This document shows positions 2,946 through 58,325 of a stretch of DNA of 64,000 nt, in pieces. The DNA lies in the NCBI GenBank assembly GCA_041663185.1, contig JBAZQY010000001.1:233087-297086 (forward strand), read 5' to 3'. This stretch comes from Minisyncoccota bacterium (GTDB taxonomy: Bacteria > Patescibacteriota > Minisyncoccia > Phycocordibacterales > UBA9973). A program made the position numbers and the translations under genes. Each line of letters opens with the position of its first letter. Within the stretch, counting starts at the first letter, position 1. The notes beneath the pieces were generated by a model. It ran no database searches. It was not told the origin of the DNA and worked only from the letters and a program-made list of their open reading frames with translations.

Positions 2946-3599
2946 ATGGCAATTAGTGCAAAAAGTTCTCAAGAATTTGTCCCAATTAAAGAAGTTCGAA
3001 ATGGAATCATTATTCTTAAAGATGGTGGTCTTCGGGCGATACTACTTGCTTCATCATTAAACCTTTCTCTTAAATCGGCCGACGAACAAACTGCCATAAT
3101 AAATGAATTTCAAAATTTTTTAAATGGTTTAGATTTTCCTATTCAAATTGCTATGCAATCTCGCCGACTAGATATCCGACCATATCTTTTGTCTCTAGAA
3201 GCCAGATTAAAAGACCAAGTTGAACCACTTCTTAAAATACAAACCAGAGAATACATAGACTTCATCCGATCATTCACCGAAGAAGTAAATATTATGACTA
3301 AGACTTTTTTTATTGTCGTTCCTTATAGTCCAACTGTTATAAAATCGGGAAATAAGATAGTCGAAGGTCTGCTTGGAGGAGGCACTCCTAAAAAGCAAGT
3401 GGAGGATACAAAGAAAGCCATTGACCTCGCCTCATTTGAAGAAAAGAGAACTCAACTTGATCAACGTGTCGGGGTTATTGCCGGAGGATTGGGGAGAATT
3501 GGTATTCGAACATCTGAACTTAAAACAGATCAGGTAGTTGAACTTTTTTATAAAACATTCAATCCAGGAGATATTAGTCAGGGAATTAAATTACAATAA
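2946..3599 (+). CDS. VirB4/TraC-family N-terminal domain protein (split VirB4, part 1)
   Basis: KEVRNGIIILKDGGLRAILLASSLNLSLKSADEQ resembles the N-terminal domain of Gram-positive-type VirB4 (PrgJ/TcpF-like); stop is 1 nt before the ATPase ORF. Confidence 0.6.
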   Translation: MAISAKSSQEFVPIKEVRNGIIILKDGGLRAILLASSLNLSLKSADEQTAIINEFQNFLNGLDFPIQIAMQSRRLDIRPYLLSLEARLKDQVEPLLKIQTREYIDFIRSFTEEVNIMTKTFFIVVPYSPTVIKSGNKIVEGLLGGGTPKKQVEDTKKAIDLASFEEKRTQLDQRVGVIAGGLGRIGIRTSELKTDQVVELFYKTFNPGDISQGIKLQ

Positions 3600-53026: not shown

Positions 53027-53665
53027 ATGAGAACAAAAACTCTCGAGCAGAACACGGCGCAAGATTTCGCTGGACTGCAAATCGACCAGTTGAGCAAATT
53101 GCGCAACGGTAACATCACCTTTGAACAGGTGAAATGGTTTAACAACCTTACATTCGAGCAACGCGAAGCGTTGATGGGCAAGCAACCCGAAATGGTGCTT
53201 TTCCTGAAACTGCTTTCCGGAGCTGAAACGCTGATGCTTGATGCCCTCGATGGCACAGAGACATTGGCAACCGCTAAGGAAGTTTTTCCATCGGGTATTG
53301 ATGGCGACTTCAAAAACTGGGGCACCAACAAGTCCAGTATCGCTACCAAAGAACAGGCGGTAGAGGTACACGAACTAGTAAAGGATGGAACCTTTGCACA
53401 GATGTTTGGTTCTCTCGGGACCGATCTGGATAAGTGGTGTTTAACACAAGCCCAGATAAAGAACTTTTGTAAAAAATATCCCAACTGGTTACGCAAAGAC
53501 GGATATGTGACTTTCTTCCTATTTAAGGTTGAAGATCACTTCTTCGTTGCTCGCGTGCGCGTGCGCTCTGGTGGCTTGGGCGTCGACGTCGGCGGGTTCG
53601 GGGGCGGCGTCGTGTGGGGTTCTGACGTCCTTCCTCGTGTGGTAGTCCCGCAACAGGTTGCTTAG
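53027..53665 (+). CDS. DGR variable (target) protein; VR encoded at the C-terminus
   Basis: 212 aa; about 50% GC against about 33% in the flanks; last 39 codons form the VR. Confidence 0.8.
   Translation: MRTKTLEQNTAQDFAGLQIDQLSKLRNGNITFEQVKWFNNLTFEQREALMGKQPEMVLFLKLLSGAETLMLDALDGTETLATAKEVFPSGIDGDFKNWGTNKSSIATKEQAVEVHELVKDGTFAQMFGSLGTDLDKWCLTQAQIKNFCKKYPNWLRKDGYVTFFLFKVEDHFFVARVRVRSGGLGVDVGGFGGGVVWGSDVLPRVVVPQQVA
53536..53654 (+). repeat. DGR variable repeat (VR)
   Basis: 119 bp aligned to TR; 21 mismatches, all at TR adenines. Confidence 0.85.
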
Positions 53666-53687
53666 ACACTTAAATAATTTGATTCTT

Positions 53688-53721
53688 AATCCCTTTGATA
53701 CTTTGTCAGAGGGATTTTTTT
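53688..53721 (+). terminator. hairpin + T-run after the target gene
   Basis: aatccctttgatactttgtcagagggattttttt. Confidence 0.5.
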
Positions 53722-53963
53722 ATGTATAATTAAAATACAAGCGTGCGATACTTCATGGTTACGGCTACGAAGTCACTTTTGTGGAAAACCATTATTGAGA
53801 ATTTTGTTGGTTACGGCTTACAAAAGAGTGGTAATGTTTTTTCAAATTAAAAAATAATTTAGTTGGTGTAGTTTGCTTGTGAATTTTGATATTCCAAATG
53901 ATATACAGCACGATTCCTAATGGAAACATGTTTGAATCGGCAGTGAAATAGATGGCACACTAC

Positions 53964-54082
53964 ACAATTCTTCGTTGCTAACGTGAACGTGAACTCTGAT
54001 GGCTTGAACGTCAACGTCAACAGGTTCGAGAACGACAACGTGTGGAATTCTGACGTCCTTCCTCGTGTGGTAGTCCCGCAAC
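53964..54082 (+). repeat. DGR template repeat (TR), non-coding, rich in AAC triplets
   Basis: aacgtgaacgtgaac ... gagaacgacaac; identical 3' 40 nt (IMH-like) with the VR. Confidence 0.85.
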
Positions 54083-54100
54083 TAAATATTTCTCCCCTGA

Positions 54101-54442
54101 TTAATTCTTGGGAGTTTTTATTTCAAGTCCCTTTTTCCAACCACCTAACATTCGCCCAATTTCATCAAGTTGTGTTGACAGTGTAATGTATTTTTCGGTT
54201 GGTAAACATTTATTTTCCCAAGAAATCTGAAGGAAAAATTTTACTCCATCTAATTTTGAAATTGAGATAGTTAATCGATTGATTTTATTTTCTCCTGAAA
54301 GATATTGAGAAACAAAAATATTTTCCAAAAGTTCTAAAAAATATCCTTCAATTTTTTCTCCAATAGTGCGACGATACATCTTAGGGAAGTCAATAAAAAT
54401 CTTAAACCAGATAGAATAAGCACCTTTTGCTTTTATGAGCAC
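54101..54442 (-). CDS. avd: Avd-like accessory variability determinant (four-helix-bundle)
   Basis: 113 aa from a GTG start; C-terminal LDEIGRMLGGWKK matches the Avd/IVS family; lies between TR and RT on the opposite strand. Confidence 0.65.
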   Translation of the reverse strand: MLIKAKGAYSIWFKIFIDFPKMYRRTIGEKIEGYFLELLENIFVSQYLSGENKINRLTISISKLDGVKFFLQISWENKCLPTEKYITLSTQLDEIGRMLGGWKKGLEIKTPKN

Positions 54443-54453
54443 CTGAGGTGCTC

Positions 54454-54463
54454 GGGGGGGGGG
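54454..54463. repeat. G10 homopolymer tract (C10 on the avd strand) next to the 17-bp hairpin gagcacctgaggtgctc
   Basis: ten consecutive G at 54454-54463 in the avd/RT divergent spacer. Confidence 0.9.
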
Positions 54464-54493
54464 TAATTAATGAATTCATATAATTAAAATAAA

Positions 54494-55513
54494 ATGAAAA
54501 AATTTGATAATAAATATAATGATATCATATCTATAGAAAACTTACTTTTAGCTTGGCAGGAATTTCTAAAAGGCAAAAGAAAAAAGAAAGATGTTTGTGA
54601 ATTTCAATTAAAACTTATGGACAATATTTTTGACTTACATAATGATTTAAAAAACAAAACATACAAACACGGTGAATATATTGCTTTTAAAATTAATGAC
54701 CCCAAACCAAGAGATATTCATAAAGCAAGTGTCAGAGATAGATTACTTCATCATGCTATATACAGAATACTTTATCCATATTTTGATCAAAAATTCATTT
54801 ATGACTCGTATTCTTGTAGATTGGGTAAGGGGACTCATAAAGCCATAAACAGATTCAGAGATTTTTCTCGAATTGTCTCAAAAAACAGTACAAGGTCTTG
54901 CCTTGTACTAAAATGCGACATCAGAAAGTTCTTTGCTAGTATTAATCACCAAGTATTGAAAAACATTTTAGTAAAATACATGGATGATAAAGATACTCTT
55001 TGGCTTATTAACCAAATTGTAGACAGTTTTCAAACCACTTACAACTTTACCAAACTAACGCTATCGCGTTCCTTTGGTAAAGGACTTCCTTTGGGCAACT
55101 TAACTAGTCAACTGCTTGTGAATATTTATATGAATGAATTTGACCAATTTGTAAAAAACAAACTAAAGATAAAATACTATATCCGCTACGCGGATGATTT
55201 TGTCATTTTGCAAAATGACAAAATGAAACTTCTTGATAATTTAGATCGAATGAAAGAATTTTTAAGTAATGAATTAAAATTAAATATGCATCCAGATAAA
55301 ATATTTATTAAAACACTTTATTCTGGTATTGATTTCTTGGGATGGGTAAGTTTCCCAAACCATAGAGTTTTAAGAACATCAACCAAAAAGAGGATGTTTA
55401 GAAATTTGGAGAAGTGTAATTATAAAAAAGAAAGTGTAAATTCTTATTTGGGGATGTTGTCGCATGGAGATGGGTATAAGCTAGAAAATTTGATAAAAAT
55501 TTGCTTAAAATAG
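54494..55513 (+). CDS. DGR-type reverse transcriptase
   Basis: RT motifs [30 protein letters not shown] (DGR-style LGxxxSQ), RYADDFVIL (YADD). Confidence 0.9.
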
Positions 55514-55536: not shown

Positions 55537-55935
55537 ATGGAAATAACGAAAAAACAATTTACTCCAGTAGCTCAAGAGGATCGTAAAAAGCTTAATTTTA
55601 AGGCTGGGGATACGGTGCGTGTTTGGAGTAAGATTTTAGAAAAAGGAAAAACTCGTTTACAGGCTTTCGAAGGGCTTGTTCTTTCTCGTAAACATGGGAC
55701 AGAGTCAGGAGCAACATTTACAATTAGAAAAGTGGCCTCAGGTGTGGGGGTTGAGCGTATTTTCCCATTATATTCTCCCAACATTGATAAAATTGAAGTT
55801 ATTAGAAAATCAAAAACTCGCCGAAGTAAGCTCTATTACATCAGAACAAAAGCAGTTAAGGAAGTTAAAAAGAGATTAAAGAGTGTGACTCTTTCAAAAG
55901 AAGAACAAGAGGGAGTTGTAAAAACAGAAGAATAA
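55537..55935 (+). CDS. rplS: 50S ribosomal protein L19
   Basis: [10 protein letters not shown] ... [21 protein letters not shown]; start placed at the Met after the RT stop. Confidence 0.85.
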
Positions 55936-55945
55936 GAAATTATAA

Positions 55946-55989
55946 TAAAAAATCCACCCAAAAGAATAGACTCAGGGTGGATTTTTTTA
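55946..55989 (+). terminator. terminator
   Basis: aaaaaatccaccc ... gggtggattttttt. Confidence 0.75.
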
Positions 55990-55997
55990 TATTAATC

Positions 55998-56025
55998 AAT
56001 TGGTAGACGCTACATCCTTGAGGTG
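55998..56025 (+). pseudogene. truncated tRNA-Leu-like fragment (D-loop to anticodon loop)
   Basis: aattggtagacgctacatccttgaggtg aligns to tRNA-Leu positions about 14-41. Confidence 0.45.
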
Positions 56026-56038
56026 ATATAATATAGAC

Positions 56039-56722
56039 ATGAGCAAGAGGGGACCACAACCAAAAAGGATTATAAATGAAAAATGGAATGCAAACTTAGC
56101 TTATGCAATTGGTCTACTCGCTACTGATGGTTGTCTGGCTAATGATGGGCTGTTAATTGATTTAACCTCAAAAGATAAAGAACAGCTATTAAATTTTTCT
56201 AAATGTGTTGGTGTAAATTTTAAGATAGGTAATAAGTGGAACTTAAAAGGAGATGAATGCCTAAGAATTCAATTTAAAAATAGAATTTTCTACGATTTTC
56301 TTTTGTCGATTGGGCTAACTTCTAAAAAATCATTAACTATGGGGAAATTAAAAGTGCCAGATAAATATTTTTTTGATTTTTTACGAGGGTGTTTTGATGG
56401 AGATGGTTGTTTTTATTCTTATTGGGATCCTAGATGGCGTTCGAGCCATATGTTTTATATTGAATTTGTTTCTGCCAGCAAAGAGCATATTGATTGGTTG
56501 CAACAAGAATTAAAAAATAACATTAAAGTAAATGGACATATCACTGTCGCTTTTAAAAAGAATAAATATTATCAACTAAAATATGCAAAAAAGGAAGCGA
56601 TGGAAATAATAAAGAAAATGTATTATAATCCCAATGTTGTTTGTTTATCTAGAAAAAAGATTAAAATCCAAAAAGCCCTAGAGATAGAGAAGAGACAACA
56701 GAAAAAATATTTAACAAAATAA
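56039..56722 (+). CDS. LAGLIDADG homing endonuclease (two-motif, monomeric type)
   Basis: AYAIGLLATDGCL and FLRGCFDGDGCF. Confidence 0.85.
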   Translation: MSKRGPQPKRIINEKWNANLAYAIGLLATDGCLANDGLLIDLTSKDKEQLLNFSKCVGVNFKIGNKWNLKGDECLRIQFKNRIFYDFLLSIGLTSKKSLTMGKLKVPDKYFFDFLRGCFDGDGCFYSYWDPRWRSSHMFYIEFVSASKEHIDWLQQELKNNIKVNGHITVAFKKNKYYQLKYAKKEAMEIIKKMYYNPNVVCLSRKKIKIQKALEIEKRQQKKYLTK

Positions 56723-56723
56723 T

Positions 56724-56809
56724 GCGCGGGTGGCGAAATCTGGTCAGACGCACTACCTTGAGGTGGTAGCGGGAGCAATCCTATGGAGGTTCGAATCCTC
56801 TCTCGCGCA
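56724..56809 (+). tRNA. tRNA-Leu (anticodon GAG), type II
   Basis: acceptor GCGCGGG/CTCGCGC, anticodon stem CTACC/GGTAG with loop TTGAGGT, long variable arm, T-arm GGAGGTTCGAATCCTCT; starts 2 nt after the HE stop. Confidence 0.8.
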
Positions 56810-56965
56810 CAAATAAAGTTTGCAATTTGTATAATTAGTGGTAATGTGAAGAAAATACCTCACATATAGTCATAGTCAAAAGTCATTAATTATTTGATGT
56901 TTTTTGACTATGACTGCTGTGGTGGTGGTCCTCTAGTACATTTAAATAATTAAATATTTAAAATT

Positions 56966-57655
56966 ATGACAGATGTAAACCGCTTGTTGTTCTGCGATGC
57001 TCGTGGACCAATGAACCAGATCAACGATGTTTTAGCTGGAAAAAATGGAAAACTCTGGTTAAAAGGAATTAACTCTTATTTGAGGCAGGGAGCAATAAAA
57101 GCTTTTGGTTGGGAAACCTATGGAGCTTTTGATTTAAGGTTCTTTGAATCACCCGATGTTTTAATGGCCGCTATTAAATTTAAATTAAAGCCGCGGGATG
57201 TTTTTTGGGGTAATGAGCATGACATTGAAGTGCTCATAAACCAAATTAACTATCCAGTTCTACAAGAATCGGGGGTAGAATTTGTTTCTTTAAAGATAGA
57301 GGAGTTGGGCTTTGAAAAAGGAGCTCGCCTATCTGAGATTGAAGATTGTCTTCCAGGACTAGGATTAGAAATATGCCGACAATCTGATGCTCCTGGTTTA
57401 TTCCTAACCGATAAAGATTCCCTTGATAAAATTAGAAAAATAGAAAGAGGGGTATTTATTAGTAAACCATTTTTTCTACATTTAAGAGGAAAAAATGATC
57501 CCGAGAGGCCAATTTTGTTTGAATTGACTTTTAGTAATGTTGTAGAGGTTGGGCTCCATAGTTTTTGGAGTGAAGCCACCGAAGGAGTTGAAGAAAAATA
57601 TCCATCAGATATATTTTTTACTTCATCGCAAAAGATTGTATTACGTATTAAATAG
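56966..57655 (+). CDS. hypothetical protein
   Basis: 229-aa ORF; preceded by a 15-bp IR hairpin tagtcatagtcaaaa/ttttgactatgacta. Confidence 0.45.
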   Translation: MTDVNRLLFCDARGPMNQINDVLAGKNGKLWLKGINSYLRQGAIKAFGWETYGAFDLRFFESPDVLMAAIKFKLKPRDVFWGNEHDIEVLINQINYPVLQESGVEFVSLKIEELGFEKGARLSEIEDCLPGLGLEICRQSDAPGLFLTDKDSLDKIRKIERGVFISKPFFLHLRGKNDPERPILFELTFSNVVEVGLHSFWSEATEGVEEKYPSDIFFTSSQKIVLRIK

Positions 57656-57752: not shown

Positions 57753-58325
57753 ATGCTTAATATTTTACTTTATGTGCTTGAGGTTTTTTTGATAGTTGTC
57801 TTTTTGGGGATTGTTGTTTTATTTGTATTTTGGTCAATTGGGAATTTTAGAAATAAAGTTCCATTCGTCACAGCGTCAAATGCTGTTTTGAAAGATATTG
57901 CAAAAGCACTTATGATTACAGATGACAGTGTAGTATATGATTTAGGGTGTGGAGATGGAAGAGTTTTGGTTTATCTTTCTCGTTTGAATCCAAAAGCAAA
58001 ATATATTGGAATTGAAAACAATATTTTACCACTTTTATTATCTAGGATTGAGTCATTTTGGTCTAATAAAAAAACGGGGAATAAAATTGAAATCATTAAT
58101 GGTGATTTTTTTAAGCAAGATTTATCCAAAGCCACTCATATTTTTACCTATCTATATCCAAATATAATGGATGAATTGCTTTCAAAATTTGAAAAGGAAC
58201 TCAAGCCCGGAACCAAATTAGTCTCACTGTCTTTTAAATTTTCAGGCAAAAATTATAGTAATGAGGTTGACCTTATGAGAAGTAAATATAAACTTGGGCG
58301 TAAGTTGTATGTTTATCAATTTTAA
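57753..58325 (+). CDS. class I SAM-dependent methyltransferase with N-terminal TM
   Basis: motif I VYDLGCGDGRVL. Confidence 0.65.
   Translation: MLNILLYVLEVFLIVVFLGIVVLFVFWSIGNFRNKVPFVTASNAVLKDIAKALMITDDSVVYDLGCGDGRVLVYLSRLNPKAKYIGIENNILPLLLSRIESFWSNKKTGNKIEIINGDFFKQDLSKATHIFTYLYPNIMDELLSKFEKELKPGTKLVSLSFKFSGKNYSNEVDLMRSKYKLGRKLYVYQF

Follow-up and report, generated by a model that had tools for sequence, protein, structure and literature searches.

Free-standing homing endonucleases have been well studied in T4-like phages, in which they are mostly of the GIY-YIG and HNH families. Here we consider a gene of the LAGLIDADG family in a 64,000-nucleotide (nt) stretch of the genome of a Minisyncoccota bacterium (contig JBAZQY010000001.1, positions 233,087 to 297,086; the whole stretch is referred to below as the window, and its G+C content is 34%), where it stands between a short tRNA-like element and an intact tRNA-Leu(GAG) gene. 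Element, open reading frame (ORF) and tRNA-Leu(GAG) form a unit that is conserved in at least 42 loci of Patescibacteria, and we think it fairly probable that this unit is a homing endonuclease cassette, free-standing and directed at the tRNA-Leu(GAG) gene of these bacteria.

Judged by analogy, the closest functional counterpart is SegB of phage T4, a free-standing GIY-YIG endonuclease encoded in a tRNA gene cluster, which cuts the tRNA gene region of phages without SegB, and so favours the inheritance of its own gene and of the markers beside it; carriers of the Seg and Mob endonucleases are protected by sequence differences at the site (PMC2330249, PMC2988022). Seg and Mob genes resemble the window gene in standing free between genes, outside any intron or intein, but SegB is a GIY-YIG enzyme of a phage, whereas the window family is of the LAGLIDADG type and resides in the chromosomes of cellular Patescibacteria. 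Unlike Seg and Mob enzymes in the descriptions that we found, the window family is attached to one tRNA isoacceptor phylum-wide, seems to use a promoter derived from its target, and probably shares a transcription unit with the tRNA. The intron-encoded GIY-YIG enzyme I-TevI binds a homing-site-like operator in its own promoter and so represses itself (PMC2988022). As with the window element, a homing-site-like sequence overlaps the gene's own promoter, which makes I-TevI a precedent for reading the element as an operator; I-TevI, however, belongs to a phage group I intron and to another enzyme family, and binding to the window element, which is about 31 base pairs (bp) long and may equally be a recombination arm, is predicted from sequence.

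In bacteria of the candidate phyla radiation (CPR), LAGLIDADG genes have been described within rRNA insertions, in an account that does not mention tRNA (PMC11270868). These enzymes, and I-Tsp061I (PDB 2DCH), share their fold, two-domain monomeric form and catalytic motifs with the window protein, and the CPR enzymes share its host group (CPR/Patescibacteria) as well, a group known to be rich in such genes; but the rRNA enzymes sit in insertions inside their target, whereas the window gene lies outside its presumed target, upstream of an uninterrupted copy. Group I introns have also been reported in tRNA-Asn, tRNA-Asp, tRNA-Thr and other tRNA genes of Patescibacteria, with an HNH enzyme where an endonuclease is present, but not in tRNA-Leu(GAG) (PMC13011429). 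Bacterial tRNA group I introns, including those of cyanobacterial tRNA-Leu(UAA), are like the window in exploiting a tRNA and in having a breakpoint by the anticodon loop, but they comprise a ribozyme and an interrupted tRNA, neither of which is present in the window. Integrative elements, too, use tRNA genes as insertion sites, for which they carry a replacement segment, and free-standing endonuclease ORFs of mitochondria bring with them a duplicate end of the invaded gene. In both, as in the window, a functional copy is supplied and a displaced partial copy lies alongside; the unit considered here differs in having no integrase, and its remnant is a 5' and middle piece, conserved as a functional part. 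In the full-text literature searched, the coverage of which was incomplete, no account of a LAGLIDADG gene located 5' of tRNA-Leu(GAG) came to light, so that a prior description is possible. The new aspects (the family, the host, the dedication to one tRNA isoacceptor, and the apparently target-derived promoter of a free-standing homing endonuclease) are in any case unusual.

The endonuclease gene and its tRNA-Leu(GAG) partner

The order on the + strand of the window is rplS, a terminator, a 45-nt spacer, the LAGLIDADG ORF, a single base and tRNA-Leu(GAG), with the following features.

55537..55935, + strand: rplS, encoding ribosomal protein L19 (Pfam Ribosomal_L19, E 1.3e-34)
55950..55988, + strand: intrinsic terminator of rplS, with the stem AAATCCACCC / GGGTGGATTT and then a T-run (read from sequence)
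55996..56034, + strand: tRNA-like element and putative promoter (promoter scan, column conservation, element hidden Markov model)
55998-56028, + strand: tRNA-like part of the element (D-loop, 3' D-stem, 5' anticodon stem, anticodon loop)
56004-56009, + strand: candidate -35 sequence TAGACG, with a 17-nt spacer to the -10 sequence
56024-56025 and 56027-56032, + strand: candidate extended -10 sequence, TG and TATAAT, with the ATG 6 nt downstream
56039..56722, + strand: two-domain LAGLIDADG gene, 227 amino acids (aa) (Pfam LAGLIDADG_3, PDB 2DCH match, AF2 model)
56601..56629, + strand: promoter-like site within the ORF (TGGAAA, 17 nt, TATAAT; promoter scan, 10/12 matches)
56724..56809, + strand: intact tRNA-Leu(GAG), CCA not encoded (Rfam tRNA, 47.3 bits)

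A first-pass annotation, made from the sequence alone, had already recognized the ORF at 56039-56722 and the intact tRNA, and in this it was right; a single base (56723) separates the two, and ARAGORN places the 3' end of the tRNA one base further on (56724-56810). The terminator was missed by an automated scan, its loop being longer than 8 nt. In related loci, this position is always occupied by a hairpin and T-run, with a different hairpin in each.

The identification of the ORF as a two-motif LAGLIDADG gene is confirmed by Pfam (LAGLIDADG_3, E 1.7e-7) and by the alignment of both its motifs, AIGLLATDG (containing D30) and LRGCFDGDG (containing D122), with those of I-Tsp061I (E 8.7e-5), an archaeal intron endonuclease that is the best solved relative of the product (identity about 21%). 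D30 and D122, the predicted catalytic residues, are invariant across 36 aligned family members. An AF2 model (predicted local distance difference test, pLDDT, 76.5; one of five models confident) has the order H-E-E-H-E-E-H twice, and its top 50 Foldseek matches are LAGLIDADG enzymes, inteins or WhiA only (probability 1.00, template modelling score 0.5-0.6), the leading ones being I-Tsp061I, the Tli VMA intein endonuclease, WhiA, I-AniI, I-DmoI and I-SceI. No extra Pfam domain, helix-turn-helix included, was found in the product, and it had no match among NCBIfam models. The 227-aa protein would be expected to make double-strand cuts at a specific site of about 20 bp.

Might the ORF instead be carried by a group I intron that splits a tRNA-Leu, with the upstream fragment and the downstream sequence as its exons? 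Patescibacteria often have group I introns in the anticodon loop of their tRNA genes (PMC13011429), and the fragment does stop just past an anticodon-loop-like sequence. Against this, Rfam scans of the whole window (gathering score) and of 55700-57100 (E<=10, permissive filters) found tRNA only, with no match to an intron family of group I or group II, and an intron-encoded endonuclease of either kind was rejected on these grounds. Moreover, the ORF is flanked by just 45 nt on its 5' side and 1 nt on its 3' side, too little to accommodate a ribozyme core; what follows the ORF is no 3' exon but an entire tRNA, acceptor and D arms included; and the fragment is without the acceptor and 5' D-stem strands. 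We therefore consider an intron extremely improbable. Intein context is likewise absent around the ORF, which has its own start 6 nt past the -10 box, and the view of the first-pass annotation that the gene is free-standing has held good.

Relatives of the product are abundant, and one NCBI protein, from a metagenome-assembled genome of Candidatus Paceibacterota, is 100% identical to it. A word-indexed search gave 2764 at E<=1e-3, of which the best 120 all have at least 72% identity, and an exhaustive protein search gave 6543 cluster representatives at E<=1e-3, of which 86 reached E<=1e-30. In species-representative genomes, a scan yielded 37 loci with 59-86% identity (in Nomurabacteria, Paceibacterota, Zambryskiibacteria, Vogelbacteria and others), most of the loci being in metagenome-assembled genomes. 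In all 37, all of them from Paceibacteria, rplS is directly upstream of the endonuclease gene (tblastn), and wherever the 3' flank is readable (35 of 35 loci) the ORF is succeeded by a similarly oriented tRNA-Leu(GAG), at a distance of -36 to +21 nt from the stop codon. The arrangement at L040, the locus whose L19 is 99% identical to the window's, is the same as in the window. Five more distant members (36-47% identity), found in a third protein search, are also directly 5' of tRNA-Leu(GAG), and this tRNA is directly 3' in all 42 homologues with a readable 3' flank, at 36-86% identity and from Parcubacteria to Microgenomates. The genes upstream of the distant members are, however, a uracil-DNA glycosylase gene (L054, L058), rplS (L055) and an unrelated gene (L056 and L057, from Daviesbacteria); because these upstream neighbours differ, it is the tRNA, and not rplS, that is the constant partner. 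The locus is thus a widespread triplet rather than the private insertion scar of one genome that the first-pass annotation had implied. Among viral contigs there was no relative of the product and no sign of a phage vehicle.

The tRNA-Leu(GAG) is probably co-transcribed with the ORF. The sigma-70-like site at 56601-56629, about 95 nt upstream of the tRNA, could be a second promoter for it; conservation of this site is inseparable from coding constraint, because it overlaps the conserved codons for MEIIKKMYYN. In nine loci (L002, L007, L008, L009, L016, L028, L029, L030 and L037) the ORF frame extends 15-36 nt into the tRNA and has its stop codon there, and in distant, GC-richer members (P0262, P0275, P0350) the protein tails resemble translated tRNA-Leu (for example, ...WGFNSL from GGGTTCAACTCC). 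RNase P cutting of such overlapping co-transcripts would strip the stop codon from the mRNA. If the cassette reading is true, an ORF called into the tRNA is an artefact of how closely the two genes adjoin, and a simple annotation rule follows: where an ORF of these genomes immediately precedes tRNA-Leu(GAG) and is labelled 'hypothetical protein', it encodes this endonuclease. The tRNA-Leu(GAG) genes of the 36 aligned loci are themselves of several sharply different sequence types, with compensatory changes in their stems; CCA is absent from the gene in the window and most of these loci, and encoded in about ten.

The tRNA-like element and the empty sites

The first-pass annotation had noticed that a stretch just upstream of the ORF resembles the D-loop to anticodon-loop portion of the tRNA. 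This similarity is better than chance: 55998-56028 aligns with tRNA positions 14-45 (56737-56768) with 27 matches in 33 columns, three mismatches and three one-base gaps, and the local score of 30 was reached by none of 2000 shuffles (maximum 24). The fragment is also the top-scoring non-tRNA tile on both strands of the 64-kb window. A covariance-model scan, which that annotation had put forward as a check, gave a different answer, in that the Rfam tRNA model had no match to the fragment alone (55992-56030), which was accordingly rejected as a foldable partial tRNA; and a profile of the 36 endonuclease-linked tRNA-Leu genes of the clade found the element only marginally (E about 1 in two loci). 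On both these grounds the likeness of the element to the window's own tRNA is modest. It is strong only in comparison with the tRNA of endonuclease-free relatives, to which we return below.

The element is highly conserved. A hidden Markov model (HMM) built from it scored 44.1 bits at the element in the window, where the second-best match was the tRNA-Leu gene (9.0 bits, E 0.1, with 128 kb searched), and it found matches upstream of the ORF in 38 of 38 loci. The consensus over about 38 bp is TAATTrGTAGACGCTAnnnCcTTGAGGTGATATAAT. The 45 nt before the ATG are kept in every Paceibacteria locus, with the consensus tttnntAtTAATTaGTAGACGCTAttaCcTTGAGGTGATATAATaTnnnnATG in an alignment of 25 loci. 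Conservation per column in these 25 shows GTAGAC and TATAAT to be invariant or nearly so, and the same is true of the intervening CcTTGAGGTGA (which includes CCTTGAGG) and of those -35 bases that depart from the promoter consensus; saturation is seen in the columns just outside the element, at three of its central positions and in the four bases that precede the ATG. This is not how a decaying leftover would look, and the notion of a 'truncated tRNA' in that sense gives way to strong purifying selection combined with promoter geometry. A promoter scan gave 10/12 matches, with a 17-nt spacer and a TG (TAGACG-17 nt-TGaTATAAT), and the element reads as a sigma-70 promoter. The distance from the -10 sequence to the ATG is 6 nt in nearly all loci, and fixed in the aligned loci of standard length; because it is so short, the endonuclease mRNA is probably leaderless, starting at A56039 and running on into the tRNA. 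No Shine-Dalgarno sequence lies at a usable distance before the ATG, and the neighbouring genes are also without an obvious one. Because the spacer and the non-consensus -35 bases are conserved beyond the needs of a promoter, the element probably has a further role as a homology arm, as an enzyme-binding (autoregulatory) site, or as both.

Where might such an element have come from? The first-pass annotation had suggested a comparison with genomes that lack the endonuclease, and a search of contigs carrying L19 proteins 89-99% identical to the window's did reveal sister genomes with tRNA-Leu(GAG) at the same junction and no endonuclease gene. Five lineages (L041-43, L046, L048, L050/51 and L052/53; L19 89-95% identical) have neither ORF nor element, and their layout is rplS, terminator, a promoter-like sequence of its own and tRNA-Leu(GAG), the promoter-like sequence in L041 being TTGAAA-17 nt-TATACT. 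Several of these genomes share the window's neighbours, with bAvd and reverse transcriptase (RT) genes upstream and a methyltransferase gene downstream, as in L041; in a blastn comparison of the window with L041, homology is lost at about 55967-56720. There is thus a presence/absence polymorphism at one rplS/tRNA-Leu site, which is occupied in the window, L040, L004, L009 and others.

It is to the tRNA genes of these empty sites that the element is most similar. The element profile scored 20.8 bits (E 5.5e-6) on the L041 tRNA (3020-3104), the alignment pairing AATTGGTAGACGC-ACTACCTTGAGGTGGTA with AAtTaGTAGACgcTAttaccTtgaggTgaTA, and 18.7 bits (E again about 1e-5) on the tRNAs of L046, L048 and L052, with the same score on the 5' part present at the end of locus L053. 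On endonuclease-linked tRNAs it scored at most 10.8 bits, yet its best non-self matches in about 580 kb were in 11 of 11 cases tRNA-Leu(GAG). The core T[AG]GTAGACGC is exact in four of the five empty-site lineages, and in none of 40 linked tRNAs. Within one tRNA type, the linked alleles differ at this point (GGTcAGACG in the window and L003; GGTAaccGC in L017), as was seen by aligning the window tRNA with those of L041, L048, L003 and L017; all of these are D-loop changes, and the cloverleaf is preserved. Relative to the empty-site tRNA, the D-loop of the window tRNA has two extra bases, at 56740 and 56745, which break the GGTAGACGC motif, missing from all 40 linked tRNAs. The upstream piece therefore looks as though it was derived from a tRNA-Leu(GAG) of the empty-site type.

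An alternative is that the element is only a strong promoter of the ORF-tRNA operon, with TAGAC as its -35 sequence, that its likeness to a tRNA is coincidental, and that the enzyme has some other target. The sigma-70 geometry is indeed perfect, the Rfam tRNA model is blind to the fragment and the linked-tRNA profile barely detects it, and the GC-rich members are without it; GAGGTGAT, moreover, fits the Shine-Dalgarno consensus. A Shine-Dalgarno reading of GAGGTGAT was rejected, however, since its GAGG is 15 nt from the ATG, too far for this function, and the invariant TATAAT is 6 nt from the ATG. Chance would also have had to produce two tRNA-like blocks whose order is that of the tRNA and whose spacing departs from it by no more than one base, as well as the exclusive profile matches to tRNA-Leu(GAG) and the score on the L041 gene, and a near-invariant spacer and -35 sequence between saturated flanks. 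In L014, L022 and L036, the tRNA-like block is kept even though insertions of 13-27 nt separate it from the -10 sequence and so break the -35/-10 spacing. In addition, the element is present in L055 and in the Daviesbacteria, and the Daviesbacteria version, AATGGTAGAC, is one base shorter, as are the D-loops of their own tRNA-Leu. We regard coincidence as quite improbable.

Searches for intermediates were negative. A metagenome scan for TTGAGGTGATATAAT followed after 3-30 nt by a tRNA-Leu 5' end returned two matches; because both were chance matches without any tRNA, the element was not found apart from the ORF. The only candidate for an acceptor-stem remnant upstream of the element was a 5-nt GCCGG in L056, which is not significant, and no displaced 3' half of a tRNA was visible after 56810. 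The window tRNA was also considered as a chimera of a donor 5' half and a host 3' half, but it differs along its whole length, with compensatory changes in the acceptor stem, so that a breakpoint at 38/39 is unsupported.

Possible homing, co-conversion or domestication

Of the original idea of a cassette that disrupted a tRNA, then, the empty sites, the tRNA-derived piece and the tie to the tRNA have survived, while the private scar and the decaying pseudogene have not. In the mechanism that we infer from these comparisons, the unit consists of a D-arm/anticodon-arm piece of about 38 bp, the ORF, and a complete tRNA-Leu(GAG) that lies close to the stop codon or overlaps it. The enzyme would cut the resident tRNA-Leu(GAG) of a cassette-free genome, the exact target being in or near ...TTGGTAGACGC-ACTACCTTGAGGTG..., and the break would be repaired from cassette DNA, with the tRNA-like piece providing the left homology and the tRNA the right homology. 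Repair would bring in the ORF and substitute, for some or all of the tRNA, an allele that differs in the recognized segment and is presumably resistant to cleavage; the downstream tRNA may either travel with the gene or have been selected after the gene's arrival. The tRNA-derived piece, besides any service as homology arm or operator, would have been recruited for promoter activity, with the -35 sequence in the former D-arm and the extended -10 sequence just past the former anticodon loop. A leaderless mRNA would continue into the tRNA, and cutting by RNase P would free the tRNA from the 3' end of this mRNA. Simple deletion would be expected to silence tRNA-Leu(GAG), because the tRNA promoter would now lie upstream of the element.

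Some aspects of the distribution suggest movement. In a neighbour-joining tree of L19 (a short marker, so that the tree is indicative), genomes with and without the cassette are intermingled, the sister of the window being L041, an empty one. The window endonuclease is nearest to those of L001-L003 (83-86% identity), whose L19 proteins are only 66-69% identical, whereas its nearest relatives by L19 (91%) carry endonucleases that are 77-81% identical; in L032, L19 is 86% but the endonuclease 63% identical. Downstream synteny (the methyltransferase gene) tracks L19, and not the endonuclease. The linked tRNAs are similarly out of step: at comparable L19 identity, the tRNAs of empty-site relatives are nearly identical to one another (96%), and those of the window, L004 and L009 are 83%, 75% and 80% identical to that of L041, and among occupied loci the identity of tRNA-Leu is uncorrelated with that of L19 (rho -0.11; compare, for neighbouring tRNA genes, 0.46 for tRNA-Arg, 0.21 for tRNA-Val and 0.17 for tRNA-His). 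Heterogeneous linked tRNAs beside uniform empty-site tRNAs would be consistent with co-conversion of flanks. Two of the 37 copies are degenerate (L025 has an in-frame stop codon, and L035 lacks about 70 N-terminal codons), which would fit a homing life cycle.

At the same time, the gene could have become part of its hosts. WhiA (DUF199) is a bacterial transcription factor with a degenerate LAGLIDADG scaffold, in which the catalytic acids are gone and a helix-turn-helix domain stands at the C terminus; its structures (PDB 3HYI/3HYJ) match the model of the window protein (Foldseek E about 4e-7), and WhiA demonstrates that this scaffold is usable for a sequence-specific regulator. By extension, the window gene might be an ancient one, fixed in the tRNA-Leu(GAG) unit, that encodes a host DNA-binding regulator of that unit, with the tRNA-like sequence as its operator, and that is transmitted vertically, with a loss now and then. 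Such a history would agree with the purifying selection on the gene (ratio of nonsynonymous to synonymous substitution, dN/dS, 0.04-0.11), with a mean identity equal to that of L19, with distances that track the host marker, with a position fixed over very deep divergence, with the conserved operator-like sequence inside its own promoter, with the rarity of pseudogenes, and with the presence of WhiA among the top fold matches. Unlike WhiA, however, the window protein keeps both aspartates, invariant throughout the alignment, and no helix-turn-helix domain was found in it, so that the WhiA-type hallmarks (loss of the acids and an added helix-turn-helix) are absent. The gene is also dispensable, in that at least five close lineages without it, interleaved with carriers in the L19 tree, keep the tRNA; there are degenerate copies and incongruences between host and endonuclease; and a pure regulator does not predict the difference in tRNA motif between carriers and non-carriers. 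On balance, domestication seems to us unlikely, though less so than a coincidental promoter.

The homing cassette that we favour has its own difficulties, and the following points weigh against it. The correlation of endonuclease and L19 distances (rho 0.47), and the saturation of synonymous sites (dS >1.4) between the window gene and its nearest sampled relatives, mean that much of the inheritance is vertical and that no recent transfer is documented. The small number of degenerate copies (2/37), and mean identities of 69% for the endonuclease and 68% for L19, also fit a gene beneficial to its host. The four empty-site tRNAs that match the element come from closely related genomes, and so amount to one or two independent observations, and the tRNA of the fifth lineage, L050, has no match to the element. 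Some linked tRNAs (L014, L015, L030) differ from the putative target at few positions, and their resistance is not obvious. A remnant of the 5' strand of the acceptor stem would be expected after simple homing into a tRNA, and none was detectable; nor is the element recognizable in the GC-rich loci L054 and L058. Finally, if the enzyme binds the element, its failure to cut it calls for an explanation, for which the one-base difference in spacing is only a guess.

A more far-reaching version of homing, which we offer tentatively, as a possibility on the doubtful side, is a phylum-wide gene drive on one tRNA, in which the resident allele would be destroyed and replaced by the cassette with its cleavage-resistant tRNA, a fragment of the cassette's own target serving at once as promoter, homology arm and operator. 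If this were so, it would be cassette activity, and not drift, that scrambles tRNA-Leu(GAG) relative to host phylogeny in Patescibacteria. Homing of the more general kind, if true, would explain why a single tRNA gene of reduced genomes has turned over so unusually, and would provide a natural case in which a sequence taken from the target has found new use as the element's own promoter, homology arm or operator. It bears also on the persistence of selfish elements where genomes are very small. There would, further, be thousands of compact, single-chain LAGLIDADG enzymes of about 220 aa with a predictable target of about 30 bp, which would be of use in studies of specificity and in engineering.

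Neighbouring elements and variants of the locus

Some relatives have other arrangements at or near this site. In L044 (2918-3120), a close relative with L19 96% identical, and also in L045, rplS is followed by neither endonuclease nor tRNA-Leu, and the intergenic region includes a short tandem 'gaattac' repeat; the tRNA-Leu(GAG) of L044 must be sited elsewhere in the genome. The two Daviesbacteria loci, on near-identical contigs, have the same Val-type tRNA body (2316-2393 in both L056 and L057), with the anticodon TAC (Val) in one and TAG (Leu according to ARAGORN) in the other. The change is a single C-to-G, and may be a true shift of anticodon or a variant due to sequencing; L057 has, in addition, an extra tRNA-Phe.

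Downstream of tRNA-Leu in the window, and before the methyltransferase gene (57753-58325), is an ORF of 229 aa (56966-57655) without any Pfam or NCBIfam match. Apart from the window, only the 99% relative L040 has it, and all other loci, occupied or empty, lack it; for this reason we regard it as a second, independent insertion beside the tRNA.

Upstream of rplS, the window contains a diversity-generating retroelement (53537-55513). It comprises a bAvd accessory gene on the minus strand (54101-54442; Pfam bAvd, 2.9e-12), a reverse transcriptase gene (54494-55513; RVT_1, 4e-22), and 118-nt direct repeats (53537-53654 and 53965-54082, 81% identity) that look like variable and template repeats. 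The order bAvd-RT-rplS is found also in L040 and L041.

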